Below are positions 4,476 through 51,346 of a stretch of DNA of 64,000 nt, in pieces. Source of the stretch: Candidatus Altiarchaeota archaeon (GTDB lineage: Archaea; Altiarchaeota; Altiarchaeia; IMC4; SCGC-AAA252-I15); NCBI GenBank assembly GCA_043804895.1, contig JAZDIN010000004.1:72887-136886 (forward strand). The letters are read 5' to 3'. How positions within the stretch are numbered: the first letter of the stretch is position 1; each line of letters opens with the position of its first letter. The notes under the pieces were generated by a model, which saw nothing but the letters and a program-made list of their open reading frames with translations, had not been told where the DNA came from and did not search any database. Both the position numbers and the translations under genes were made by a program.

Positions 4476-4609
4476 TCCAGTAATGATAGGGGAATCGCAA
4501 GCCTAAAACATACTTTTCCGCCGCTCTAGGGATTCCTTAATACCCCCGCCATACACTAGGATATTGTATGTCAAAATCCCTTAGGACATAGGGATTTTGG
4601 GAGAGTAAG

Positions 4610-4798
4610 ATGAAAGGGCAAGTACCAGATTGGAGGGTCAGCACAGTAGTGAGCGACCCTGAAGCAGGAAAGGATAGGTGGACGAACGTCGGGGTGGCAT
4701 TCGAAGGCAACGACACGATAACAGTGCTCGTTGACGCGATGCCAGTTAACGGCAAACTCATCCTACAGCGTCCGCGCAAAAAAGAAGAGGCCAAGTAA
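4610..4798 (+). CDS. hypothetical small protein (62 aa)
   Basis: ORF preceded by GGGAGAG and a 9-bp hairpin (4573-4598). No family recognised. Confidence 0.4.
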   Translation: MKGQVPDWRVSTVVSDPEAGKDRWTNVGVAFEGNDTITVLVDAMPVNGKLILQRPRKKEEAK

Positions 4799-4824
4799 CC
4801 CCCACATGCCGGAAGCAGAGGGGG

Positions 4825-5346
4825 TTACAGTTTTTTTATCATATATATTATCTTTTCCTCCAGCCCATCCTGGCGGACGTACTCGGACTCTGACAACTCT
4901 TTGAAGCCCATCTTCTGCCAGAATTGTAGGGCCGGGGTGTTTTTCATGTTCACGTTCAGTATAACGTGCGTCGCCTCCTTAGTCCGGAGGTGCTCCTGCG
5001 TGGTCTTGTAGAGCATCGTCCCCAGGCCACGTCGTCTGAGAGGCCGTTCTATGACGATCAGGTCTACTTCAGTCAGTTTCTTTACCTTCTTGAATGGGTT
5101 AAACGTTGGTGTCCGGATGGTTATGAATCCGATTATCGTGTTGTTATCCTTTAGGACGAAGGTTTCGCATTCGCTGTCAGTGAGCGTCTTAGCCCATGGT
5201 ATCTCGCCGTCTATGTAACGGTAGTTTGCGTCTCCTACGCCGGCGGAGACCCTGTCTTCGTTGAACTCCATGTAGAGTTTTAGTATCCCCTTAGAGTCCC
5301 CAGGGGCAGCTAAGCTAACCTGCATAGTGTATATTTCACCGTACAT
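4825..5346 (-). CDS. GNAT-family N-acetyltransferase
   Basis: Acetyl-CoA loop RPLRRRGLGTMLY (Q/RxxGxG). Start trimmed to MYGEIYTMQV... (ATG at 5346), because the track extension runs through a structured repeat. Confidence 0.75.
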   Translation of the reverse strand: MYGEIYTMQVSLAAPGDSKGILKLYMEFNEDRVSAGVGDANYRYIDGEIPWAKTLTDSECETFVLKDNNTIIGFITIRTPTFNPFKKVKKLTEVDLIVIERPLRRRGLGTMLYKTTQEHLRTKEATHVILNVNMKNTPALQFWQKMGFKELSESEYVRQDGLEEKIIYMIKKL

Positions 5347-5432
5347 ATTAATCAATACCTCTAGGATAGTATTTACCAGAAAAAACGCAGAGTAGTATTG
5401 TATTAACCCTGCGCTTTTATGACGCGACCTAA

Positions 5433-5507
5433 CCCCCTGGCTAGGGCGTGTGTCTGAGCATTGCTCAGCCACATAAATACCGCAGCCTTCAGGCTGCAGG
5501 TATTTAT
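5433..5507 (-). repeat. multi-hairpin module, copy 1 (in the GNAT 5' leader)
   Basis: Read on the minus strand: hairpin CGCAGCC-TGAA-GGCTGCG, then ATGTGG, hairpin CTGAGCAATGCTCAG, ACACACGCC and CTAGCCAGGG. The same architecture occurs at 6609-6679, 21313-21360, 45178-45250 and 50194-50269. Confidence 0.7.
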
Positions 5508-5541
5508 TGTCCGTCGAGGATAGTTAAGTCGGTGAGTTGGT

Positions 5542-6411
5542 TTGAAGGCGACATTTTTTGGCAGTCTGAAGACGCTGTTGGACCTCATACGCATGAGGAA
5601 TGCGGCGATATCTTTTCTGGGAGTGTATGTGGGCGCGTTGGTCTTCCTGTTGAAGCCTTCGATGCCGCTCTTGGAAGTCCTTAAGGCAGCTGTGTCGACC
5701 AGCCTGATACTTGGGGCTGGCAACACCCTCAACGACTACTTCGACTTTGAGATAGACAGGGTGAACAGGCCGAAGAGGCCGATTCCTTCAGGGAGGATAA
5801 GCCGCCGGTGGGCGCTCATCGTGTCGGTTGTCCTTTTCCTAGTCGGTTTAGGGTTTGCTTTGGGGATAAACGACCTGTGCTTTGACATAGCCTTGTTCAA
5901 TTCCGCGCTGCTTGTCATGTACGCGGCTTACGGGAAGAGGATGCTCCTGGCATCGAATATAATGATAAGCTACCTTGTCGCCTCAGTCTTCCTCTATGGG
6001 GCGGCTGCGGTGCATTCGCCGACTGTGAGCTTTGACCCTGCGGGTGCGAAGCTTGTCGTAATACTCGCCTTGTGCGCGTTCTTCGTGAACTTCAGCAGGG
6101 AAATCGTGAAGGACATAGAGGATGTTGAAGGAGACATGAAGAAGAACAGCCTAACGCTCCCGATAAGATACGGGGAAAAAAACGCCAGACTTTTAGCATT
6201 CACCTCAGCCGTCTTCGCAGTCCTGATAAGCCTGACGCCGGTACTCTCACAGACTCACAGCTTCAACAGACTCGCCTACACGGCGCTTCTCATACCAACA
6301 GACATTATGATACTCTTCTCCTTCACCACATGCCCGGCCACAAACCAGAAGCTCCTAGTCCTCAGCATGACCCTCGCACTACTCTCATTCCTACTCGGCG
6401 CAACAATTTAG
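5542..6411 (+). CDS. UbiA-family prenyltransferase, probable digeranylgeranylglyceryl phosphate synthase
   Basis: NDYFDFEIDRVNRPKRPIPSG (the Asp-rich UbiA motif) and about 8 predicted TM segments. TTG start as in the track; an alternative ATG lies at 5593. Confidence 0.8.
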   Translation: MKATFFGSLKTLLDLIRMRNAAISFLGVYVGALVFLLKPSMPLLEVLKAAVSTSLILGAGNTLNDYFDFEIDRVNRPKRPIPSGRISRRWALIVSVVLFLVGLGFALGINDLCFDIALFNSALLVMYAAYGKRMLLASNIMISYLVASVFLYGAAAVHSPTVSFDPAGAKLVVILALCAFFVNFSREIVKDIEDVEGDMKKNSLTLPIRYGEKNARLLAFTSAVFAVLISLTPVLSQTHSFNRLAYTALLIPTDIMILFSFTTCPATNQKLLVLSMTLALLSFLLGATI

Positions 6412-6433
6412 CTCGTAACGTGATAATGCACTC

Positions 6434-6453
6434 GTGCCACCGACAGGTGGCAC
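6434..6453. terminator. 8-bp GC-rich hairpin between the convergent DGGGPS gene and tRNA-Thr
   Basis: GTGCCACC-GACA-GGTGGCAC. A terminator role is only inferred, since archaeal termination usually relies on oligo-T. Confidence 0.3.
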
Positions 6454-6516
6454 AAGTCCGTTCCGGGGGGATCAGGGTTAACTTAAAACTGAGGGGGCGG
6501 TAGCCCCCTGCGGTTT

Positions 6517-6723
6517 AGCCTCAGGCGAGAATTGAACTCGCCACCTCGTGCTGTTTGTAGCTTGAATTGACCCGGTTTTTCTTTCTTTGAACCCGAGGGC
6601 CTCACCGCCGAGCCTTTTAGGCTCGGGTGTGTGTCTGAGACTTTTGTCTCAGCCACATTCTTTCTTGCGAAGAAAGAAAGGGGCTCTACCAAGCACGCGC
6701 TCTACCTACTGAGCTACTGAGGC
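6517..6723 (-). tRNA. tRNA-Thr(GGU) with a 134-nt intron after position 37
   Basis: Manual cloverleaf: GCCTCAG-TA-GCTC-AGTAGGTA-GAGC-G-CGTGC-TTGGTA|intron|A-GCACG-AGGTG-GCGAG-TTCAATT-CTCGC-CTGAGGC-T. No encoded CCA. TTATAA box about 28 nt upstream (6751-6756). Confidence 0.85.
6553..6686 (-). other. tRNA-Thr intron (134 nt) containing the multi-hairpin module
   Basis: Begins GAGCCCCTTTCTTTC..., homologous to the start of the tRNA-Glu intron. Contains ATGTGG-CTGAGACAAAAGTCTCAG-ACACACACC-CGAGCCTAAAAGGCTCG. The exact splice junctions are inferred from the cloverleaf. Confidence 0.7.
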
Positions 6724-6872
6724 TTTGTTGATGTTGCCAATTCGCCAGCCTTATAAGGCCTTTATTGAGGCGATTTGGTTCCTATTCTTTAGGTATTTGT
6801 GGTTTATATGTTCCGGGGTGAGTGTCCCTTAGGGGTGTGGGGTTTTTTATTGCGTTGCGCTTATTATCTACC

Positions 6873-7151
6873 ATGGGTAATTGTGGGAGATGCGGTAAGC
6901 CTATGTTCAACCCGGGGGAGGCGGTTTGCGAAAGCTGTAAGAAGACTATTTCGAGGGGTGCTTCTAAACATGCTGATAGGATGAATAGGAGGATGGATGA
7001 GCAGGCTGAGTTGTTCATGAACATTGCGGCTCCGGGTGGTGATGAGGATGTTAAGGGTGACATGCGCCATGAGCATTATGTGAACACCCATGACGCCTCC
7101 GCGGTTTGGGCTGATGGGGGCGCTAAGAAGGGAGGCAGCAGGAAGCAGTGA
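6873..7151 (+). CDS. small zinc-ribbon protein
   Basis: MGNCGRCGKPMFNPGEAVCESC (CxxC...CxxC). Start trimmed to the ATG at 6873. Confidence 0.5.
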   Translation: MGNCGRCGKPMFNPGEAVCESCKKTISRGASKHADRMNRRMDEQAELFMNIAAPGGDEDVKGDMRHEHYVNTHDASAVWADGGAKKGGSRKQ

Positions 7152-7153
7152 GT

Positions 7154-8218
7154 TCAGTTCATCCTGTAGCGTAGTTTGGCTGCCATTCCCCCGAGTGAGC
7201 TTAACCTCTGTCCAGCTTCTGATTCGCTGTTGATTAGGTGGACTTTGCCTGCTGAGTTTGTGACTTGGTTCATCAGCGGTTCCGCGTGCGCTCTTTCGGC
7301 GAAGAAGAGTGCGTCGGTCACGAGGAGCATTTCAGCGGCGCCCGCGTTGACTGCGTCTGCCACTTCCTTCCGACCGTATGCTGCAAGTCCGGTGTCCTTG
7401 CCTATCTGTTTTAGTATGTCTTCGACGAGCCTGATGTCTTGGACTGAGTTGACTTCCTCGATAGTCCTTTGTATTGCTTCCCGTTTGAGGACCTCCTGTA
7501 TTCCGTTGCGTCCTGCGCTGCCTGTGTCTTCGATTGCGCATTTTCCAGCTAGTTCTTGATTTTCTTCCTTGAGGAATTTGAAGTAGTTGTTCTTCTCAAA
7601 TCCTGGCCCGGATAGTATCGCGTTGCCAGCGTTCTCCTTTTCCATGACGTTCCCGATGAGTTGGGTGAGTTGCCGGTAGAATTCGGCTTTGCGGGTCTCC
7701 CTTCCCTTCGCATCGTATTTTCCGCCGATGTTTGAGCCTATGTCATAGTATTCTAGCTTGGATTCCCTAAGGAGGGCCAGCGTGGCTTCTCCCTCATCAA
7801 GCGACACTATTATGACCTTAGGTCGTAGGGTGCTTTTGACCGCGTCGTTGAGGCGGTCCATCTCCGTCTTAGCCCACCGCTCCTTTATGATTGTCAACTG
7901 AGTGTCTGCGTCGACGTTGAGCGTGTGGTGGCTGCCTTGGCTGACTATGTCCTCGGGGCCTTCCTCGATTGTGCCTGAGACTCGCAGGACGCTGGTGTCT
8001 GATTTGAAGTCGGTCTTCTCGACTTTGACTGTCAATGTGATTGTCTTGCGTTCTCCTCCTGAGCTTTTGGTGTCGTCCTTGTCTTTGATGCGCCTCTGGC
8101 TCTTCCCCTTCACCAGGTCCCCGGAAGCGATGACCTGGCTGAGGTACCACAGGTCGTCGAGGCTCTCGCACCTGACCCTGACGAGCCCATGCCGCAAGTC
8201 CTTGTACTCTATCCTCAT
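7154..8218 (-). CDS. pelA: pelota (Dom34) mRNA surveillance / ribosome rescue factor
   Basis: N-terminus MRIEYKDLRHGLVRVRCESLDDLWYLSQVI. 354 aa with eRF1-like three-domain length, and C-terminal GGMAAKLRY. Confidence 0.88.
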   Translation of the reverse strand: MRIEYKDLRHGLVRVRCESLDDLWYLSQVIASGDLVKGKSQRRIKDKDDTKSSGGERKTITLTVKVEKTDFKSDTSVLRVSGTIEEGPEDIVSQGSHHTLNVDADTQLTIIKERWAKTEMDRLNDAVKSTLRPKVIIVSLDEGEATLALLRESKLEYYDIGSNIGGKYDAKGRETRKAEFYRQLTQLIGNVMEKENAGNAILSGPGFEKNNYFKFLKEENQELAGKCAIEDTGSAGRNGIQEVLKREAIQRTIEEVNSVQDIRLVEDILKQIGKDTGLAAYGRKEVADAVNAGAAEMLLVTDALFFAERAHAEPLMNQVTNSAGKVHLINSESEAGQRLSSLGGMAAKLRYRMN

Positions 8219-17432: not shown

Positions 17433-17497
17433 CTTACCAAATAGTATAGAGTTTTACATTAATAAATAAGTAAGACAGCCAATGAAAAGTAAAATAT

Positions 17498-17579
17498 GGC
17501 TCCCTTCAGGGAGCTGACGCATCAACTCCTCAAAATCGCCGAGCGATTTTGGGATGCTAGTTGCCAGAGCAACTTCGCG
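17498..17579 (+). repeat. left arm of an inverted repeat of about 80 nt flanking the GNAT-toxin cassette
   Basis: GGCTCCCTTCAGGGAGCTGACGC...TCCTCAAAATCGCCGAGCGATTTTGGGATGCTAGTTGCCAGAGCAACTTCGCG. Its reverse complement recurs at 18772-18856. Confidence 0.8.
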
Positions 17580-17765
17580 CATAAAACTGCCCGGAACATA
17601 TCCAGCAAGCCCGAGTGTATTCATCTATTGCAAAAGGATGCAAATGAGCCGTAGCGTTAGCGTGGTCTGATGCAAAAGGGTGGAGAAACTCAGTAGGAGA
17701 GCCTTATCTGGCAGGGCATAAAGTATATATCCTAGCGTTACTTATTGAGTATTACAGGCGATTTT

Positions 17766-17939
17766 ATGGCACGACCAATCGATTTTTCCACAGACCTGAA
17801 CGAGGAGGACAGCATGCGGTTTGTCAACGAGTTGATTAGAGTGGATTCTTTACCAGCGAACGACAAGGAACTGGTCAAACACAGGAAGTTCCTAGAGGAA
17901 TGCGCCATTAAGGCAAGCAAGGTCAAGTGGCTTGCTTAG
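17766..17939 (+). CDS. hypothetical small protein (57 aa)
   Basis: ORF MARPIDFSTDLNEEDSMRFVNEL..., convergent with the GNAT pseudogene and overlapping its stop. No family recognised. Confidence 0.3.
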   Translation: MARPIDFSTDLNEEDSMRFVNELIRVDSLPANDKELVKHRKFLEECAIKASKVKWLA

Positions 17940-18534
17940 AACTCCCTCAACAGGTCGAGATACATCTTGATGGTTTCAGAATCTGTTTTCTTCTTGCTTA
18001 GAACCTTGAACTCGTTGTGTTCATAGAATCCGACGGCATCGGAGTATGCGTCAACAACTATAAAACGGCAGCCAATCTTCTCTGACTCTTTCAATGCCAG
18101 ACCGATTATTGTCTTGATTATCTCCGTGCCAACACCTTTTAGCATGAAGTTCTTGTCAACACCCAGACGAGCAATCAACAGGGCCGGGAAGAGTTTGTAC
18201 TTCTTCCCCCGTTGACGTAGTATCTGCAATGCCCTTTCAGTCGGCTCTATAGCGAACATACTCAGCAAAAGTACCCCAACACATTGCCCTTTTGCATGAA
18301 GAGATACGTTACCGCCGCCTTCCCTTTTAGGTGGTCTAATGCATCTTCCTGGAGGAATTCATTCAGGTCTTTATCACCGCAGTCGAATCCATTCGTCAAC
18401 GCAAGATTGCCCTCATCCAATCTGATTATCCTGGCATCAGACAAGTCCGTGACAGCAGCGCCCATACTACCTATATTGTGGCGAGAGGATAATAAGTTGC
18501 TCGACATACCATTTTGTAGATAAACTCTAGGCAC
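17936..18534 (-). pseudogene. GNAT-type acetyltransferase toxin (TacT/AtaT-like), frameshifted
   Basis: The N-terminal ORF (FDCGDKDLNEFLQEDA...VLGYFC*) and C-terminal ORF (LLSMFAIEP...FPALLIARLGVDKNFMLKGVGTEII...) are two halves of one GNAT. The frames join if one T is added to the T4 run (plus-strand A4 at 18267-18270). No DUF1778/RHH antitoxin lies upstream. Confidence 0.7.
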
Positions 18535-18670
18535 TAAAATCAGGTGAGTCTTTAAAGACGTTGGAGATTCGAACCCAATAGGTTAATGCGCAGCTGGAAG
18601 ATTTGAACCTGAACTATATAACCTATCTGGACTGGCTAAAACGGCAGTATAATAGACGTGAGAAAATAAT

Positions 18671-18739
18671 TGCTCCCTTCGGGATTTCCCACAAGACGTT
18701 CGTCTTGCTTAAATCCCGAAGGCGTACAGTGCATGCACC
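18671..18739 (+). repeat. 69-nt palindromic element built on the tRNA-Glu 3' end (copy 1)
   Basis: TGCTCCCTTCGGGATTTCCCACAAGACGTTCGTCTTGCTTAAATCCCGAAGGCGTACAGTGCATGCACC. The first 17 nt equal the reverse complement of the tRNA-Glu 3' end. Nearly identical to 20423-20491. Confidence 0.85.
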
Positions 18740-18771
18740 CTCGAAGAGGGTGCTATCCGCTTCGGTGCGAT

Positions 18772-18856
18772 GCGAAGTTGCTCTGGCAACTAGCATCCCA
18801 AAATCGCCCGGCGATTTTGAGGATCTGACGCGTCAGCTCAATGCTCCCTTCGAGCC
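18772..18856 (-). repeat. right arm of the inverted repeat flanking the GNAT-toxin cassette
   Basis: Reverse complement: GGCTCGAAGGGAGCATTGAGCTGACGCGTCAGATCCTCAAAATCGCCGGGCGATTTTGGGATGCTAGTTGCCAGAGCAACTTCGC. It also shares GGGAGCATTGAGCTGACGC with the sequence just 3' of tRNA-Glu. Confidence 0.8.
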
Positions 18857-19064
18857 ATAAACAGTTTGTTCAATTAAGGGGAAACTCCGGCAGAAAAGGG
18901 CACATTTTGGCTCAACAACCTCCCTTCCATCCCGGCCAAATAACAAGGTTGGATGAAGGGTCAGGTGTAGTATTTATAGTTGAGATATGCTATATGTTAG
19001 CAATAACCTCCCCATCTTTAGGTAGGCTTGTCCTATCTAACGATGGGCCCTCTGTGTGCTTCTG

Positions 19065-19610
19065 ATGAAACGGGCTGTTATTTTCATAGACGGTAGCAAC
19101 TTCTACCACTCCTGTTTGGACTCATTGGGCGCCGCCGACGTCAACTTCGGCAAGTTCGCCGCCAAACTATGCAGGAGCTATGAGCTTGTTGAAATCAGGT
19201 ACTATAACGCATCCATAAATCAGCAGATGGAGCCGGAGAAGTACAGGGAACAGCAGAGGTTCTTCGCCAAGGTGGCCAAGATACCGAAGGTGAAACTCAT
19301 ACTCGGGAAACTGAAGGCACGATTTGAGACGTGCACCCAATGCAGCAAGAAGACCAGGTATTTCGTGGAGAAAAATACCGACGTAAACATAGCAATTGAC
19401 CTGGTTGACTTGGCCCACAAGAATGTGTACGATATAGCGGTTATGGTCACAGGAGACGGCGATTTCAGCGGAGCAGTCAGGTTGGTCAGAACCTTCAGCA
19501 AGGAAGTCGAACACGCAAGGTTCAGGAAGAACTACTCGACAGAACTCAACAGGGCCTGCAACAGGGAAATAATACTAGACGAGGAATACATGAGAGATTG
19601 TTTACTATAA
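19065..19610 (+). CDS. NYN-domain (LabA/DUF88-like) putative RNase
   Basis: AVIFIDGSNFYHS and DVNIAIDLVDLAHKNVYDIAVMVTGDGDFSGAV motifs. Start taken at MKRAV. Confidence 0.8.
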   Translation: MKRAVIFIDGSNFYHSCLDSLGAADVNFGKFAAKLCRSYELVEIRYYNASINQQMEPEKYREQQRFFAKVAKIPKVKLILGKLKARFETCTQCSKKTRYFVEKNTDVNIAIDLVDLAHKNVYDIAVMVTGDGDFSGAVRLVRTFSKEVEHARFRKNYSTELNRACNREIILDEEYMRDCLL

Positions 19611-19684
19611 CCCACCCTTCCAGGCTAATGACTTGGGTTCCTCGAAGACCCAAGACTGCAGACAAATTCCAACCGTAAAGATAT

Positions 19685-19700
19685 TGCTCCCTTCGGGATT
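19685..19700 (+). repeat. 16-nt copy of the tRNA-Glu 3' end
   Basis: TGCTCCCTTCGGGATT matches 21407-21422 exactly. It is followed by a truncated T-arm-like CCGGGTTCGAGTC. Confidence 0.8.
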
Positions 19701-19781
19701 CCTGTACCGGGTTCGAGTCTCAAATTTTAATTACTAATTAAAGATGAGACATGCAAGTATAAAAATTCTCGGACATAATGA

Positions 19782-20027
19782 CTATCGATACACTTTGTCT
19801 CTATGTTCAAAACAGTTTATGAGTATCCTATCCTGTTCAACTCTATAAATAATCCTAAATGGTGGGACTCGTAGACTTCTGTGGTTTTTTAGTTCATGCT
19901 TCAGTGGCTTTCCCGCATCTGGTTGTTGTTCGAGCTTCTTGATTTGTTTGATTATCCTCAATCGAGTTGCATTATCCTTTATCTTCTTATACTCTTCCGC
20001 AAACTCCTGTGAGAAAATTATTTCCAT
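19782..20027 (-). CDS. relE: RelE/ParE-family toxin
   Basis: 81 aa. KPLKHELKNHRSLRVPPFRIIYRVEQDRILINCFEHRDKVY is the typical RelE C-terminal pattern. Downstream of an AbrB-type antitoxin. Confidence 0.8.
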   Translation of the reverse strand: MEIIFSQEFAEEYKKIKDNATRLRIIKQIKKLEQQPDAGKPLKHELKNHRSLRVPPFRIIYRVEQDRILINCFEHRDKVYR

Positions 20028-20030
20028 GAC

Positions 20031-20306
20031 TCATGCTATCAGAAGGTGATCTATCTCTTCATCTCCCATCTCCGTACTCGCCTTAACCACTTTACCGGAC
20101 TTTATCTGGGATTCGCTTTTAGTTATGCGCTCAATCAACTTTATTTCCTCCGATAACGCTGCATTATTTACCAACTTCAGGAGGATGTTACTCCCTTTGT
20201 TGAATACTATAAACTTTGATTGCGGCCCCAATCCGGCGTCCCTCCTAACTTCAGCAGGTATAACTATCTGACCATTCTGGCTCATCTTTGTTATAGCAAC
20301 TTCCAT
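20031..20306 (-). CDS. AbrB/MazE-type antitoxin
   Basis: MSQNGQIVIPAEVRRDAGLGPQSKF swapped-hairpin motif. Start taken at MEVAITK. Confidence 0.75.
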   Translation of the reverse strand: MEVAITKMSQNGQIVIPAEVRRDAGLGPQSKFIVFNKGSNILLKLVNNAALSEEIKLIERITKSESQIKSGKVVKASTEMGDEEIDHLLIA

Positions 20307-20422
20307 ATACAACACCTACAATACGTTTTAATATTAAAACATAGCATATTTGAGTTTAAAAATAGGGATTTACATAAAATCCCCCCTTCAGGATATATCC
20401 GAGTTTCGAACCCTCATAGGGA

Positions 20423-20491
20423 TGCTCCCTTCGGGATTTCCCGCAAGACATTCGTCTTGCTTAAATCCCGAAGGCGTACAGTGCATGCACC
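20423..20491 (+). repeat. 69-nt palindromic element built on the tRNA-Glu 3' end (copy 2)
   Basis: TGCTCCCTTCGGGATTTCCCGCAAGACATTCGTCTTGCTTAAATCCCGAAGGCGTACAGTGCATGCACC. Differs from copy 1 at two positions. Confidence 0.85.
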
Positions 20492-20607
20492 TTGACGGCA
20501 TAAAACATATGCTGATTGATACTATCCAAGAGTTAGTGAACATTATTCATTTTTATTCTTTCATTGCAGGTAATTAACTAGTCAGCATAAGATGGAGGAC
20601 TCTAAAG

Positions 20608-21078
20608 ATGGATAAACACATCACCTTCGGAATCTGGACGGCATTCGCGGTCTTCGCGATTGGAATACTAGTAGGCGCAATGATGATGGGGAACGCAATC
20701 CCAGCAGGACAATTCAGCACTCCTGACACTTCAACACAAAGATCAGTTGAGCCGGCTAACATAATACCAACCCCCCTTGAAGGGGAAGAAGATGATGGGT
20801 GTTGTATTTATAAGGATGAGACGTATTCGGGGGAGACGACCGAGGAAGAATGCGAGGATGATGAGGGCACCTGGTATGATGAAACGTGTGAAGAGATAAT
20901 ATGTGGTTTGTATGTTGGGAACCCTACGCTGGAGGAAGAGTGCATTACTGCCGAAGAATGTGAAGAAAAAAATGGCGGTGCGATAAATAAGATATGTCCA
21001 AGACTGGGTTCAGGTGACCCGCTAGGCGCCATAGACATAGAGGAGGACATAGTCTGTTGTTTACACCCGGGTGATTAG
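20608..21078 (+). CDS. membrane-anchored acidic Cys-rich protein
   Basis: N-terminal TM helix (FGIWTAFAVFAIGILVGAMMMG), then a Glu/Asp-rich region with 10 Cys (GCCIY, EECEDDEG, CEEIICG, EECITAEECEE, IVCC). No family recognised. Confidence 0.5.
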   Translation: MDKHITFGIWTAFAVFAIGILVGAMMMGNAIPAGQFSTPDTSTQRSVEPANIIPTPLEGEEDDGCCIYKDETYSGETTEEECEDDEGTWYDETCEEIICGLYVGNPTLEEECITAEECEEKNGGAINKICPRLGSGDPLGAIDIEEDIVCCLHPGD

Positions 21079-21312
21079 GTTTCGCTCAATTAGAGTGGCC
21101 ATCCTCTTGGGGAAGAAAGTGCCCGCGGAAAGAAAACACCTAGTGCATGTGTCTTCGAAGAAGTCGTTATTCATTCGTCTTATGCGTTCTGATGGGTCGA
21201 AAGACCCATCAACACCCGTAGTTTTCGCGAGCCTTTTGATAAAAGGCTCAATGCTCGCTTCGAGGAGCCCTTCCTTTGCGAAAGAAAGCGTATAGTGCAT
21301 GTACCTTCTGAT

Positions 21313-21360
21313 ATGTGGCGTAGCCACTGGCTACGACACGCGCCCGAGACAATGTCTCGG
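21313..21360 (+). repeat. multi-hairpin module copy, inside a hairpin-rich tract of about 340 nt (21060-21406)
   Basis: ATGTGG-CGTAGCCACTGGCTACG-ACACGCGC-CCGAGACAATGTCTCGG. Confidence 0.7.
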
Positions 21361-21406
21361 TCGCGAGGCACCATCCGCTCCAGTGCGAGCTGATGCGTCA
21401 GCTCAA

Positions 21407-21568
21407 TGCTCCCTTCGGGATTTGAACCCGAGTCGCCGGATTTCTCCAGGCAGGACCTAACGGTTCTGCCACCCGTTTTTCTTGGGGGGTGAAGCACCTT
21501 TCTTTTTTGAAAAGAAAGGGGCTCTCTGCGAAAGTCCGGTATGATAGGCCGGTCTACACTAAGGGAGC
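21407..21568 (-). tRNA. tRNA-Glu(UUC) with an 87-nt intron in the anticodon loop
   Basis: GCTCCCT-TA-GTGTAGACCGGCCTATCAT-A-CCGGA-CTTTCG|intron|A-TCCGG-CGAC-TCGGG-TTCAAAT-CCCGA-AGGGAGC-A. The D-arm GTGTAGNCCGGCCNATCAT is the archaeal tRNA-Glu signature. The junction could be 37/38 or 38/39. Confidence 0.85.
21442..21528 (-). other. tRNA-Glu intron (87 nt)
   Basis: CAGAGAGCCCCTTTCTTTTCAAAAAAGAAAGG...AAGAAAAACGGGTGG.... Both ends resemble the tRNA-Thr intron (GAGCCCCTTTCTTTC... and ...AAGAAAAACCGGGTC). Confidence 0.7.
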
Positions 21569-21629
21569 GTAGATTTGTTTTGTTGGTTATCCTCTCAGTA
21601 TATCTGAGATTCATATTAGATTAGTGTAA

Positions 21630-21713
21630 TCCGGTATGATAGGCCGGTATCTGGCTCGAAGAGCCGGATATGCGCGACCGCCGCAGCGTCGCATGCATCT
21701 ACACTAAGGGAGC
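21630..21713 (-). pseudogene. partial tRNA-Glu copy B: positions 1-31 with a 50-nt insert in the D-loop and no 3' half
   Basis: GCTCCCTTAGTGTAGA-[50 nt, 21648-21697, two hairpins]-CCGGCCTATCATACCGGA, then TTACACT and the hairpin AATCTCAGATATACTGAGAGGATA. The exon parts are identical to the complete gene. Confidence 0.6.
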
Positions 21714-21768
21714 GTTTGTGCGCTCTTTTTATCTATCCTCTCCGCGTGGAGATTCATTGCTCCAGTAG

Positions 21769-21850
21769 TCCGGTATGATAGGCCGGTGTCGGGCATGGGA
21801 GTGCCCGAGACGCCCGACGCGGATGCGTCGGATGCGTCTACACTAAGGGA
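21769..21850 (-). pseudogene. partial tRNA-Glu copy A: positions 3-31 with a different 50-nt D-loop insert
   Basis: (AA)TCCCTTAGTGTAGA-[50 nt, 21787-21836, two hairpins]-CCGGCCTATCATACCGGA, then CTACTGG and the hairpin AATGAATCTCCACGCGGAGAGGATA. The first two acceptor nucleotides do not match. Confidence 0.6.
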
Positions 21851-21878
21851 TTGGTTTTGTTATTAGGGGTCTTGTTTT

Positions 21879-36585: not shown

Positions 36586-39327
36586 TCACTTATTCTGCCT
36601 TGGCACCAGTATAACCTTCGGCCTCTTCCTTATGCCGAGTATTCCGGTAACTTGGTTTTTCACCTGTTCTGCCTTTTTGACGAGCGGAGGTTGCGGGTCG
36701 GCTGGAGCCTGCAGGATTTTTGTCTCGATTTTCTTCTTCCACGGCTTAACTAGAGGCCCGGCCTCAACCGCCCTCTTTTCCAGTTTAGGTAGTATGACAG
36801 TCCTTTGCTTCAGCCCGAAGCGCGTCACGTTCGTGAGCCTCTCAAGTTCCTTCGCGATCGCCTGCTGTAGTGTGAGTTGTTTCTTCGACTCCAGCGCCTT
36901 CCCGTCTTCGACTGGTTTAGGTTTCCTCCCAAAGAATTTTTCCTTCAGTCCGGTGACGTTGAGTACGATCTTTTTCTTAGGTTCGGTGGACGGCCTTCGA
37001 AGGAGCAGGTAGGCGACGGCTGCTAAGCTCAATGCTATTGCGATGTTCTGGCTGGTGAGCCAGGATGATGAAGTGGAGAACGTTTTCTTGCCGTCCTCGG
37101 CCTGCATGTATAGTCGCTGCGCCTTCCTGTATCCGGTCGCGTCGCCTGAGGTGTTGAATGCTGACATGGACTTGCCGGAGTATTCTAAGGCTTCGTCGAA
37201 GCTCATGTTGTCGTACGACTGCTGCGCCCTCACGTAGAGTATGTCCGCTTCCACCAAGCTTTTGGTGCTGTCGTACATGGTTATGGCTTTTTCAGCGTTT
37301 TCTCCGCCTGTCTTCTGGTAGAGTGGTATGGCCTGCTTCAACTGGTCTGATGCCTTGATGTAGTCTCCTTCGTTGTAATATTCCAATGCCTTCTGATAGT
37401 ATGTGTCTGCCTTAATCTTGGTGAGCATCCTCTCGGTCTTCTCCAATCCGGCGTTGTTGCCTGCGAGCTCGTACGACTGTCTGGCGAAGCCGAATATCAT
37501 CAAGGCGTTATCTGGTTTCCCCTCACCGATAGCCTTCAGGCCGTCGGCATAGTATTTGTCTGCCTTCTCGGTTAGGCTGAACATGTCAGACGCGTTCCTA
37601 AGTTTGATGAGACTTTGGGTGTCGTTCACTCCACGGTAGAATCTCGCCGCAGCAGCAAGGTATGTTGACGCGTTCTCTGTGAGCCCGATGGAGTAGTAGT
37701 ATTGGGCTTCAAGGAGGTATTTTTCAGCCTCTATCTTCTGGTAGAGGAGCTGGCTTTTCCTGATGCCTGCCGTATCGTTGACGTCCCCGTAAATCCTAGA
37801 GGCCTCATCAAGCCTGCGGCCGGCTTCGGTCAGGTTGGCGTCGATGTAGAGGCCTTCAGCCCGGTTGAACACGAGGTCAGCGTCGAGGGAGCGCAGGAGG
37901 TTGTCGCATTTGACTATGCCATCAGGGTAGGATATCTTCGAGTATACGGACCTTGCAGCCGCAATGTTCTCCTTCGCCGACTCCATGTCGCCCACGTCCC
38001 TGTTCCTGAGCGCAGCCCGGTATGAGACGTCGCCGAAGGCTATCCTCACGCGCCGCATGTCGCCGAACATGTAGAGGCGGCCGTCGTCTGAGCCGACTGC
38101 GAACTCCAGCGCCCCGTCGTTTGTGAGGTCCGCTACCGCAGGCGACGACTTCACTTTCCCGCCGGTCCTGTAACTGAACTTCCTCGTGCCAGGATAGTTT
38201 ATGACGTACACCACCCCATCGTCTGAGCCGAAGATGACGTCGGTCACGTTGTCGCGGTTCAGGTCAGCGAGCGCTGGTGAGGATTCTATCGGCTCGGTGA
38301 GCGTGTACCGTTTGACTAACGTGAGGTTCGTGTGCATGAAGTAGAGGGTGCCGTCCGCTGACCCGAATATCACGTACGCGACTCCGCTGTCGTCCAGGCT
38401 GGAGAGAGCCGCGGAGGATGTTACGGCCCCCCAGGAGGTGTAGTTGACTGCTGACATGCCTGTCGTCCCAATCGACTCCGTCGTCCACCCTGCCGCAGTC
38501 CTGACGCGACGCGTCTCGGTCGCATCGGTAGCTTCTATGGTCAGCCGGTATATCTTCCTGTCCTCTGAGCCTACGTAGACGTATCCGGTGTTGGCTATCG
38601 CTGGCGTTGCTGATATGTCGCCGTCGACAGCATAGGACCAGGACTTGTATGGGGGGTGTTTTAGGATGTACACCATGTTGTCGTTGGAGCCTATGATGAC
38701 GTCAGCCCCACCGGTGTGGTCAACGTCAAAGAGCGCGGGAGAGGACGCTATGCTGTCGAGGGTCTGGTACTCCCACACCCTGATGCCCGGGTGGTTGAGG
38801 CAGTAGACTGCACCGTCGTATGAGCCGAACACGACCTCCTTGGCTGGTGTGCCTCCCAAGTCCATGACAGCCGGCGAACCCCGAACAACACCATGGGTGG
38901 TGTAGTTCCACATTAGCCTGCCATTGTTGTCGAGGACGTATAGGTTGCCGTCGTCTGAGCCGAACACGACGTCCGTCTTACCGTCGCCGTCAACGTCAGC
39001 GAGAGTAGGGGACGAGCGGACAGGCGCGCCTGTTGCGAACTTCCACAAGAGCCTGCCAGAGTAGTCAAGCGCATATAGGCGGCCGTTGTCTGAGCCGAAC
39101 ACGACCTCGAGGATTGTGTCGTTGTTTATGTCTGCTATCGCAGGGGAGGACCTTACCGGCTTCCCAGTCGAGTAGTTCCACAGGAGTTGTATGTCGTTGA
39201 GGCTGTACTTCGAATACGCCGTCGAAACTCCATTCCTTTGGTAGTTGCCACGGAACGTGGGCCAGTCATGGGATGACACGGACTGAGCCAGGGCGAAGAG
39301 CGCCAAAACCAGGAGAATCTTCCTCAT
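36586..39327 (-). CDS. large type I membrane protein: signal peptide, 8-blade PQQ/FG-GAP-like beta-propeller, helical (TPR-like) repeats, TM helix and a Lys/Pro-rich cytoplasmic tail
   Basis: Signal peptide MRKILLVLALFALAQSVSS. Eight repeats of the (F/V/I)GSxDxxxY type (FGSDNGRLYALD, FGSDDGNLYVLD, FGSYDGAVYCLN, IGSNDNMVYIL, VGSEDRKIYRL, FGSADGTLYFM, FGSDDGVVYVIN, VGSDDGRLYMF), preceded by ADxDxDG-like loops. TM helix IAIALSLAAVAYLLL. Confidence 0.8.
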   Translation of the reverse strand: MRKILLVLALFALAQSVSSHDWPTFRGNYQRNGVSTAYSKYSLNDIQLLWNYSTGKPVRSSPAIADINNDTILEVVFGSDNGRLYALDYSGRLLWKFATGAPVRSSPTLADVDGDGKTDVVFGSDDGNLYVLDNNGRLMWNYTTHGVVRGSPAVMDLGGTPAKEVVFGSYDGAVYCLNHPGIRVWEYQTLDSIASSPALFDVDHTGGADVIIGSNDNMVYILKHPPYKSWSYAVDGDISATPAIANTGYVYVGSEDRKIYRLTIEATDATETRRVRTAAGWTTESIGTTGMSAVNYTSWGAVTSSAALSSLDDSGVAYVIFGSADGTLYFMHTNLTLVKRYTLTEPIESSPALADLNRDNVTDVIFGSDDGVVYVINYPGTRKFSYRTGGKVKSSPAVADLTNDGALEFAVGSDDGRLYMFGDMRRVRIAFGDVSYRAALRNRDVGDMESAKENIAAARSVYSKISYPDGIVKCDNLLRSLDADLVFNRAEGLYIDANLTEAGRRLDEASRIYGDVNDTAGIRKSQLLYQKIEAEKYLLEAQYYYSIGLTENASTYLAAAARFYRGVNDTQSLIKLRNASDMFSLTEKADKYYADGLKAIGEGKPDNALMIFGFARQSYELAGNNAGLEKTERMLTKIKADTYYQKALEYYNEGDYIKASDQLKQAIPLYQKTGGENAEKAITMYDSTKSLVEADILYVRAQQSYDNMSFDEALEYSGKSMSAFNTSGDATGYRKAQRLYMQAEDGKKTFSTSSSWLTSQNIAIALSLAAVAYLLLRRPSTEPKKKIVLNVTGLKEKFFGRKPKPVEDGKALESKKQLTLQQAIAKELERLTNVTRFGLKQRTVILPKLEKRAVEAGPLVKPWKKKIETKILQAPADPQPPLVKKAEQVKNQVTGILGIRKRPKVILVPRQNK

Positions 39328-45103: not shown

Positions 45104-45177
45104 CCAGCGGGAAACCAATGCCAAGAGCCGTTCGTGAGCGTTTTAACCCGGTGAGTTAAATATATTCTCTGAATGAA

Positions 45178-45334
45178 CCGCAGCCTTTAGGCTGCGGTAC
45201 AACGGACACTAGGTGTCCGTGTACACGAACTCCAAAAGGAGTTCGTTGTATTCCAAATACGCTTAAAATGCCAAACAGCCAAACAAACACAGGAGGTGTA
45301 AGCGAGTAGGCTGTAGTGCCATCGCGTATTTGTA
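45178..45334 (+). repeat. three-hairpin module plus conserved leader upstream of 45335
   Basis: CCGCAGCCTTTAGGCTGCGG, CGGACACTAGGTGTCCG and GAACTCCAAAAGGAGTTC, followed by ...AAAATGCCAAA...AGGAGGTGTAAGCGAGTA...CGCGTATTTGTAATGA. Paralogous to 50194-50347. Confidence 0.75.
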
Positions 45335-50187: not shown

Positions 50188-50193
50188 AATAAA

Positions 50194-50347
50194 CCGCAGC
50201 CTTTAGGCTGCGTATTCCAATGTGGCCGAGACAAATGTCTCGGACACACACCGGAGGCTAAGAGCCTCCGATGTGATACGCTCAAAATGCCAAAAAGCAA
50301 AAAACAGATAGGAGGTGCAAGCGAGTAAGAATACTCGCGTATTTGTA
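50194..50347 (+). repeat. three-hairpin module plus conserved leader upstream of 50348
   Basis: CCGCAGCCTTTAGGCTGCG, ATGTGG, CCGAGACAAATGTCTCGG, ACACACACC, GGAGGCTAAGAGCCTCC, then ...AAAATGCCAAA...AGGAGGTGCAAGCGAGTAAGAATACTCGCGTATTTGTAATGA. Confidence 0.8.
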
Positions 50348-51346
50348 ATGAGTTTCGTGAAGATGCTGTCCCGGATGCTCCCGAGGAAGATGAGGGACAA
50401 CTACCACCAACTGCTCGGGTGCTCCACAGTCAAGGGAGACCCGGACTCGTTCATAGGGATGGCCCAGGTCATCGGGATAGTGGCGAGCTTCACCATCACC
50501 CTCTTCACAGGAAACTACAAGACAGTACCACCCCTCCTAGTGTTCGTCGCATCGTTCATGGTCATAGAATTCCTCATATACCTCTGGCTGGTCCTGAACG
50601 TGAGCGCCAAGGGACAGCAGGTGGAGGCCGCCCTCCCGGATGCACTCCAGCTGATGTCATCCAACATCAGAGCAGGCCTCACCACAGACAAGGCCCTCCT
50701 CCTTGCAGCAAGACCAGAGTTCGGGGCCCTTGAGGAGGAGCTAAGGAGGGTGGGGAAGGAGACGATGGCAGGCAGAAGCCTCGCCGACGCCCTCTCAAGG
50801 ATGACTCTCCACATAAGGTCCAACGACCTGGACAGGACCATAGAGTTGCTCATACACAGCCTAAAATCCGGAGGACAGCTCGCAGACCTCCTCGACCAGA
50901 CAGCAAACGACCTGAGGGACCAGCAGATAGTCCAAAAGGAGATAAGCGCCAGCGTCCTCATGTACGTCCTTTTCATATTCATCGCCCTTGCGATAGGCGC
51001 CCCAGTGCTCTTCTCCATGTCATCGTTCCTAGTCGAACTCCTCTCCACGAACATGCAACTGATAGCGAAGGAGATGCCGAAGGACTTCGGCGCCCACGGC
51101 GGGTCCATGCCGATAAAGATGACCGGCACCACAGTCAGCACCACCTTCCTCCACACCTACGCCATAATCTCGATAACGCTATCGTGCGTATTCGGAGGCC
51201 TCATAATCGGGATGATACTCAAAGGAGAGGAGAAGGAGGGAGTCAAATACATACCAATCATGCTCTTCGTAGCGCTGCTGCTATTCTTCTTGGCCACGTT
51301 TGTGTTGAAGTCGACAATCGGCGGCATGATGCCGATGGGCGATTAG
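50348..51346 (+). CDS. T2SSF-domain membrane protein (TadC/FlaJ C-half-like)
   Basis: [22 protein letters not shown]...LADALSRM...[11 protein letters not shown]. The ATG at 50348 is chosen by analogy with the conserved leader of 45335; the track's GTG at 50315 lies inside the AGGAGGTG block. Confidence 0.8.

Follow-up and report, generated by a model that had tools for sequence, protein, structure and literature searches.

A double-hairpin module of about 57 nt is repeated in an Altiarchaeota genome and in related DPANN metagenome contigs; its two hairpins adjoin each other, their base is conserved and their stems covary freely. The stretch analysed here is 64,000 nt of one contig of that genome (hereafter, the window). 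What the data show directly is its fold and covariation, its spread over multiple genomes, its presence/absence polymorphism, its nesting in loops, its orientation bias and its absence from Rfam. We give roughly even chances to the reading that it is a small non-autonomous mosaic insertion element of the REP/BIME kind, mostly co-oriented with transcription; mobility at the DNA level, the mechanism of spread and a trans-acting factor are what we infer beyond these observations.

The pattern ATGTGGC-N12-22-GACACRC has four matches in the window, at 5448-5474(-), 6629-6658(-), 21313-21341(+), and 50220-50249(+), compared with 0.01 expected from 100 shuffles, and these lie where the initial annotation had placed four full copies. 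Scored with a covariance model, window copies 1-4 reach 57.6-74.4 bits. Copy 1 (50217..50279, +; 74.4 bits; MFE fold) occupies the spacer between two T2SSF genes and reads AU-GUG-G, the stem-loop CCGAGAC AAAU GUCUCGG, A-CAC followed directly by ACA-C, the stem-loop CGGAGGCU AAG AGCCUCCG, and A-UGU-GA. Copy 2 (6599..6661, -; 71.8 bits) lies within the intron of a tRNA-Thr(GGU) gene. Copy 3 (21310..21369, +; 71.4 bits; linker ACACGCGC, tail UCGCGA) is nested in the hairpin loop of a larger repeat, 45 nt past the 3' end of a minus-strand tRNA-Glu, and copy 4 (5419..5477, -; 57.6 bits; linker ACACACGC, tail UCGCGU), for which a fold was also computed, lies between divergent GNAT (-) and UbiA (+) genes identified by Pfam. 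The window holds four to five copies per 64 kb, a modest copy number.

The unit had been described as comprising three hairpins, but the actual unit has two; the upstream hairpin varies and is present with some copies only. Upstream of copy 1 this accessory hairpin, hp1 (50194..50212, +; CGCAGCC UUUA GGCUGCG), is a member of a separate repeat family, D9 (CCGCAGCC..GGCTGCG), which also occurs at 45178-45197 and at 5480-5499(-), the latter preceding copy 4. Where a degenerate copy was proposed, at 45178-45250, a variant double hairpin is present, and the model scores only 17.7-19.7 bits over 45170-45254. This variant (45194..45254, +) carries the tags GUACA / UGUACA / UUGUAU, keeps the logic X-hairpin-X'-hairpin-X, and folds at -47.8 kcal/mol with a z of -8.5. 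Other double hairpins in the window include a different module at 18776..18819 (+; tags GAUGC / GCAUCC / GGAU), which has an inverted copy at 17531-17574 and is absent from paralogue B at 21232-21425, and a further one at 21789..21831 (+; 16.3 bits) inside the D-loop region of a partial minus-strand tRNA-Glu 5' copy. A short peptide encoded from the conserved ATG was considered and rejected on our own reading of the sequences, because the loops vary in length and so put the copies in different reading frames. Repeats of another kind are found at 38072-39156 (-), within the ORF 36586-39327, where imperfect repeats of families D1 and D2, mostly at a 135-nt spacing, suggest that the encoded 913-aa protein is a repeat-domain surface protein.

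The linkers AUGUGG and ACACRCRC were initially taken to be single-stranded. They can, however, base-pair with each other and with a third conserved stretch on the 3' side of the last hairpin (the tail N-UGUG-A), and both RNAfold and RNAalifold predict all three to be paired. The resulting anatomy, 5'-AU GUG G (stem-loop 2) A CAC / ACA C (stem-loop 3) N UGU GA-3', is that of two extended hairpins set back to back, GUG-(G.A)-stem2-CAC being followed directly by ACA-(C.N)-stem3-UGU. The lowest three base pairs of each hairpin are formed by UGUG at the 5' side, ACACRCRC at the centre and YGYG in the 3' tail, and where the centre ends in ...GC the tail is UCGYG instead of N-UGUG-A. RNAfold returned the linker pairing as the MFE structure in five of six folded regions and as the centroid in the sixth (locus L034), with z values of -2.4 to -8.5 against shuffles across the six; RNAalifold, applied to an alignment of 19 distinct copies, independently returned the same two-hairpin structure. 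Each arm has a conserved 1x1 mismatch three base pairs above its foot, G.A in the first and C.(U/C/A) in the second, and the partner of C38 (column 58) is U, C or A in the 19 copies and never G. In about half of the copies (L084, L102/L103, L099, L081, L083, both copies in L034, and window copy 3) the flanking sequences also pair as a helix, P1, which yields a T-shaped three-way junction with the module at the tip of a longer hairpin. The remaining copies show no such flanking helix, and P1 is therefore not obligatory.

That the stems differ between copies yet stay complementary, as the initial annotation had proposed, is strongly borne out by covariation over the 19 copies. Standard pairs are formed in 97.2% of cells, compared with 20-44% when partners are slid by 1-3 columns; nine pairs change on both sides, a count reached in 2 of 500 shuffles; and the covariation score of 0.33, against 0.087 in shuffles, was reached in none of 500. 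The free stem pair 11-29 occurs as UA, CG, GC, and AU, pair 43-53 occurs as six pair types, and the centre/tail pairs 35-61 and 37-59 covary between AU and GC. These last two pairs are informative because the 3' tail lay outside the search pattern used on metagenomes. Letters fixed by that pattern are uninformative for covariation, and the conservation of the junction letters is partly a product of how the copies were found. Counts of G.U and A.C (3 vs 2) did not settle the strand. The covariance model, built from the same 19 copies and used to scan the window and the loci of relatives, also found variants that keep the pairing logic with other letters (ACAUAUGU with CCAUAU in L034, a similar one in L106, and AUGCGAC in L085), and in these the junction letters change with compensation. 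The module matches no described family in Rfam 15, which gave no match at gathering score in the window and none over the motif at E<=10 in seven loci or at E<=1 in 4500-7500. Inside the UbiA coding region, 5955-6017 (+) weakly resembles snoU31b in Rfam (26.9 bits against a gathering score of 37), probably by chance.

Beyond the window, relatives were sampled as one genome per GTDB species by T2SSF alignment. The resulting 80 loci include about 38 from Altiarchaeota and none from the species of the window. The module occurs in only one of these 80 loci, L034, in two copies, and it is absent from about 600 kb of other Altiarchaeota pilus loci. A scan of JGI metagenomes with the pattern ATGTGGCNNAGN{4,12}CTNNGACACRCRCC returned 27 matches in 26 loci, of which about 21 form both hairpins and six are GC-rich chance matches; viral contigs gave no match to the strict pattern. 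About 20 copies beyond those of the window are thus found in DPANN metagenome contigs. These span 33-60% GC with a patchy distribution, they share 20 or more conserved letters across unrelated contigs, and one of the contigs encodes a protein identical to one labelled Pacearchaeota. In L085 and L106 adjacent copies stand in inverted orientation. In low-GC contigs the module lies within a block of about 225 nt (L101 13836-14060; also in L082, L086, L088, and L091) that is near-identical across contigs while its flanks are unrelated in at least four contexts, the module itself being 100% identical in five aligned contigs. The functional strand of this block is ambiguous, because it is the opposite strand that has the more stable fold, a TATA-like box and a hairpin-T5 terminator; the block may represent either a mobile element of larger size or a small RNA gene present in multiple copies.

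Five lines of evidence from sequence comparison suggest that the module was inserted rather than inherited in place: the T2SSF genes that abut elsewhere, the leader blocks, the paralogous repeats, the inverted pairs, and the low-GC block with its unrelated flanks. In the window the two T2SSF genes are separated by about 160 nt, occupied by an inserted leader block (50188..50347, +) that comprises hp1, the module, an A-rich stretch with ACGCUCAAAAUGCC, a Shine-Dalgarno sequence (AGGAGGUG) and a hairpin, and that runs up to the start codon (ATG, 50348) of the second T2SSF gene. The two genes abut or overlap in every other Altiarchaeota locus examined, at 53-71% amino-acid identity; the closest of these relatives with gene calls are P0002 (71%) and P0005 and P0006 (both 68%), and the T2SSF protein at 50315-51346, which is identical to an NCBI protein from Altiarchaeota, has its next relatives at <=71%. 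The 15.9-kb locus L107, which is syntenic with 40-56 kb of the window, gave no model match above 11 bits. A paralogous leader block lies at 45172-45334 (repeat families D7 and D9), and homologous leader blocks in the window, L085, L089, and L095, each with its own AGGAGGUG and hairpin, end exactly at the start codons of unrelated genes (T2SSF, DUF2226-like, OapB, and DUF362/ferredoxin (Fer4)). The two leader blocks of the window carry different double hairpins on opposite sides of a common 'ATTCCAA', the variant at 45194..45254 being inserted before rather than after it. Similarly, the paralogous repeats 18660-18870 and 21232-21425 have a common backbone and different double hairpins at different sites, and the hairpin whose loop is occupied by copy 3 in 21232-21425 is intact, without the module, in 18660-18870. 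The presence/absence evidence from the T2SSF spacer and from the paralogous repeats fits the idea of a mobile structured element put forward in the initial annotation. Across the filled/empty comparisons no target-site duplication recurs consistently, and the exact limits of the insertion could not be placed; the candidate duplications ATGTG and AAGAAAG each fit some copies and not others.

Copies with interpretable flanks are all intergenic, apart from one that is intronic, and their neighbours are ordinary genes (PolB, PGI-like, adenylosuccinate lyase (ADSL), DtxR/FeoB, KaiC-like, T2SSE/F, GNAT, and UbiA). In a Pfam scan of the ORFs beside the copies, these were housekeeping, toxin-antitoxin or uncharacterised, and no transposase or HUH/Y1 gene was found near any copy. 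When 16 independent placements were tallied on ORF maps, about 13 ran in the same direction as the neighbouring gene or tRNA; L091 and the inverted partners in L085 and L106 did not. Among the contexts assigned earlier to the window copies, the tRNA-Thr intron and the spot beyond tRNA-Glu stand, but copy 4 may lie outside the 5' leader of the GNAT gene. A hairpin GCGCAG...CUGCG followed by T6 is seen at 5380-5415 (-), between copy 4 and the GNAT start codon, and because of this terminator-like site copy 4 may belong to a separate short transcript.

The tRNA-Thr(GGU) gene that hosts copy 2 (6516..6724, -) was detected by ARAGORN with introns allowed, and has a 134-nt anticodon-loop intron; in the predicted fold of the pre-tRNA the acceptor, D and T arms are intact and the anticodon helix is extended, and the Rfam tRNA model gives it a sub-threshold 21 bits. 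A second intron-bearing tRNA, c[21407,21568], found in the same way, is called Ser by ARAGORN, and from its anticodon loop we read it as tRNA-Glu(UUC). Neither tRNA was found by ARAGORN in its default mode or by Rfam at gathering score, which reported no RNA gene in the window. In practice, tRNA genes whose introns carry the module are overlooked by Rfam and by tRNA finders run with default settings. Both introns share the start GAGCCCC-UUUCUUU with the 21265 region. The module appears to be an insert in such introns rather than their core, because two sequences with the intron start, the tRNA-Glu intron and the second intron-like piece in L092, carry no module.

Several further observations concern tRNA fragments. 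Upstream of the second intron-bearing tRNA (21407-21575, -; Glu-UUC by our reading, Ser by ARAGORN) are two partial 5' copies of it (21626-21720 and 21765-21860, both -), with D-loop regions broken by GC-rich hairpin inserts of families D6 and D13. In a low-GC island at 17490-21420, five to six copies of a tRNA-Glu 3'-end fragment (TGCTCCCTTCGGGATTT) are interspersed among PIN, GNAT-toxin-like, NYN, and MazE/AbrB genes and repeats of 69 nt that are 97% identical (D4, D18, and I1); the island resembles what serial integrations at the tRNA gene would leave behind, and no integrase was seen in it. In L092, three tandem tRNA-Gly 5' pieces (15 nt, 39 nt, and the full gene) occupy 1333-1747; the first two are followed by intron-like sequence with a GAACCCC-UUUCUUU start, as in the tRNA introns of the window, and the module is in the first.

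Under the reading that we prefer, the module would have spread by insertion into non-coding DNA, such as spacers inside or after operons, other hairpin loops and an intron in a tRNA anticodon loop, and would have been joined with other hairpin modules into mosaic blocks as in bacterial REP/BIME. Stem complementarity would be kept by selection or by intrastrand repair while the stem sequence drifts, and the constant feet and mismatches would presumably reflect recognition of one strand by a trans-acting factor, possibly an HUH/Y1-type enzyme that acts on single-strand hairpins. A transcribed copy may act only as a stable RNA structure, for example as a 3'-end or intercistronic stabiliser. Weighing against this reading are the absence of a transposase or HUH/Y1 gene near the copies, the lack of inverted termini, of a consistent target-site duplication and of a sharp insertion boundary, and the modest copy number. 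The main rival, which we consider a good deal less probable, is a dedicated RNA function: a cis-acting structured motif (three-way junction or double hairpin) that a protein or nuclease of the host would recognise, for example for processing, stabilising or localising the RNA, and that was repeatedly recruited into introns, 3' UTRs and intercistronic spacers, its spread being secondary to function. The orientation bias and a junction that is constant across 33-60% GC fit such a motif equally well. The constancy of the junction letters and of both mismatches while the stems covary, the avoidance of G at column 58, and the identity of the low-GC module in five contigs despite unrelated flanks also speak for it, and the copies in the tRNA intron and inside operons are certainly transcribed in module orientation. 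It is opposed by the want of a common theme among the contexts (PolB, PGI, ADSL, feoAB, pilus genes, tRNA intron) and by the same loci lacking the module in most Altiarchaeota. The closing helix P1 in only about half of the copies, the three antisense copies, the better-folding opposite strand of the low-GC block with its TATA-like box and terminator, and the lack of K-turn, C/D or H/ACA features likewise count against an RNA function.

Less probable again is that the module is debris of an archaeal tRNA intron family moving between tRNA genes, its non-tRNA copies being fragments scattered by recombination or integration. Copy 2 within the tRNA-Thr intron, an intron-like composite (roughly 90% identical by eye) after a tRNA-Gly 5' fragment in L092, copy 3 in an island full of tRNA-Glu fragments, and the common intron starts speak for this idea, which we nonetheless judge improbable: most copies (in pilus spacers, in spacers after PolB, PGI and ADSL, and in the feo locus) lie away from any tRNA or intron sequence, and the intron start occurs without the module in the two sequences named above. 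A new small self-cleaving ribozyme built on the three-way junction would account for a compact junction with a conserved core and for many copies in varied contexts, some as inverted pairs, a distribution like that of hammerhead and twister. We think this very improbable, as the conserved letters are nearly all in Watson-Crick pairs with only about seven unpaired, P1 is often absent, the junction letters of the variants change with compensation, no Rfam ribozyme matches at E<=10, and cleavage in an operon spacer or intron has no obvious role. The likeness of unrelated terminator or spacer hairpins by chance, to which the abundance of GC-rich hairpins in the window (73 vs 38 in shuffles) might lend some colour, has a negligible probability and is refuted by the frequency of the pattern, the recurrence of its conserved letters in unrelated contigs and the covariation; adjacent double hairpins also number 6 in the window vs 0.1 in shuffles.

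To our knowledge, REP/BIME-type structured repeats have been described in bacteria, and we know of no comparable family described in DPANN archaea. With a clean fold supported by covariation, a junction conserved across 33-60% GC and clear filled and empty sites, the module offers a tractable handle on how small hairpin modules spread in streamlined archaeal genomes. It likewise offers a handle on operon remodelling, as two pilus genes that used to abut are here parted by the insertion, which brings in a new ribosome-binding site, and on a possible contribution of such insertions to the tRNA introns, unusually long in these lineages. A bolder proposition, which we think unlikely, is an archaeal system that has gone unreported, in which a strand-specific enzyme reads T-shaped hairpins by their UGUG/CACA feet and fixed mismatches and places them in other hairpin loops, or alternatively a protein-binding RNA motif common to DPANN lineages. 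If true, an enzyme system targeting tRNA anticodon and D loops would explain in concrete terms how archaeal tRNA introns arise and lengthen.

A comparison of the module with known structured elements shows partial likeness to several of them. Inspection of the 19 copies found no C (RUGAUGA) or D (CUGA) boxes, no H/ACA pocket and no 3-nt bulge with tandem G.A as in a K-turn; the core letters of hammerhead and other small self-cleaving ribozymes (e.g., CUGANGA / GAAA / UH) are absent from the same copies, and no Rfam ribozyme matches. An integron attC reading was rejected, the defining letters being missing. Archaeal tRNA introns with a bulge-helix-bulge, and 'intron transposition' in Thermoproteales, provide a further point of comparison. 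Like these, the module has one copy in a canonical-position tRNA intron and intron-like composites beside other tRNA pieces; its fold, however, lacks the bulge-helix-bulge and its 3-nt bulges, and only copy 2 is inside an intron. The T-shaped hairpins of parvovirus AAV ITRs, with two internal palindromes inside an outer palindrome forming a three-way T, are a structural analogy only, with no relation in sequence or biology. The T structure of the AAV ITR is read by an HUH nuclease, a precedent for single-strand recognition of such a shape.

The resemblance to MITEs suggested by the initial annotation fails under a strict definition, as neither terminal inverted repeats nor a consistent target-site duplication is seen. 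The ends of the module (AUGUGG... / ...YGUGA, that is UGUG...UGUG) are direct rather than inverted repeats, ATGTG repeats occur at some copies only, and a length of 57 nt is at the bottom of the MITE size range. The highest density of conserved MITEs (cMITEs) reported among archaea is that of Ca. Altiarchaeum (hamiconexum) (PMC11602168), and the module shares with MITEs and cMITEs its small, non-coding, intergenic insertions, its patchiness, its presence/absence between relatives and a host phylum reported to be MITE-rich. The ends of IS200/IS605 elements and PATEs are similar in their two subterminal imperfect hairpins without inverted repeats or target duplications, in their strand-specific action and in the short conserved letters 5' of each hairpin foot. 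Unlike them, the module has no tnpA or tnpB nearby and no identified conserved target tetranucleotide, and its hairpins are adjacent instead of standing at the two ends of an element.

The closest kind is REP/BIME, mobilised by RAYT (TnpA-REP). Systems of REP with RAYT are reported from bacteria alone, IS200-type TnpA-Y1 being the only kind known in archaea (PMC6006769). The module departs from them in its archaeal host, in pairing two tandem hairpins through a common central linker, and in its tag, which is (A)UGUG / ACAC (AUGUGG / ACAC) where REP/BIME have GTAG or CGTC at the 5' foot. REP/BIME number hundreds per genome, compared with the four to five module copies counted in 64 kb, and the Pfam-scanned neighbours of the copies include no cognate RAYT. 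In common with REP/BIME, the module is a short imperfect extragenic palindrome found after genes and between cistrons, and it shares with them a tag at the hairpin foot, a conserved mismatch, compensated stems, and an arrangement in mosaic clusters that sometimes includes inverted pairs.
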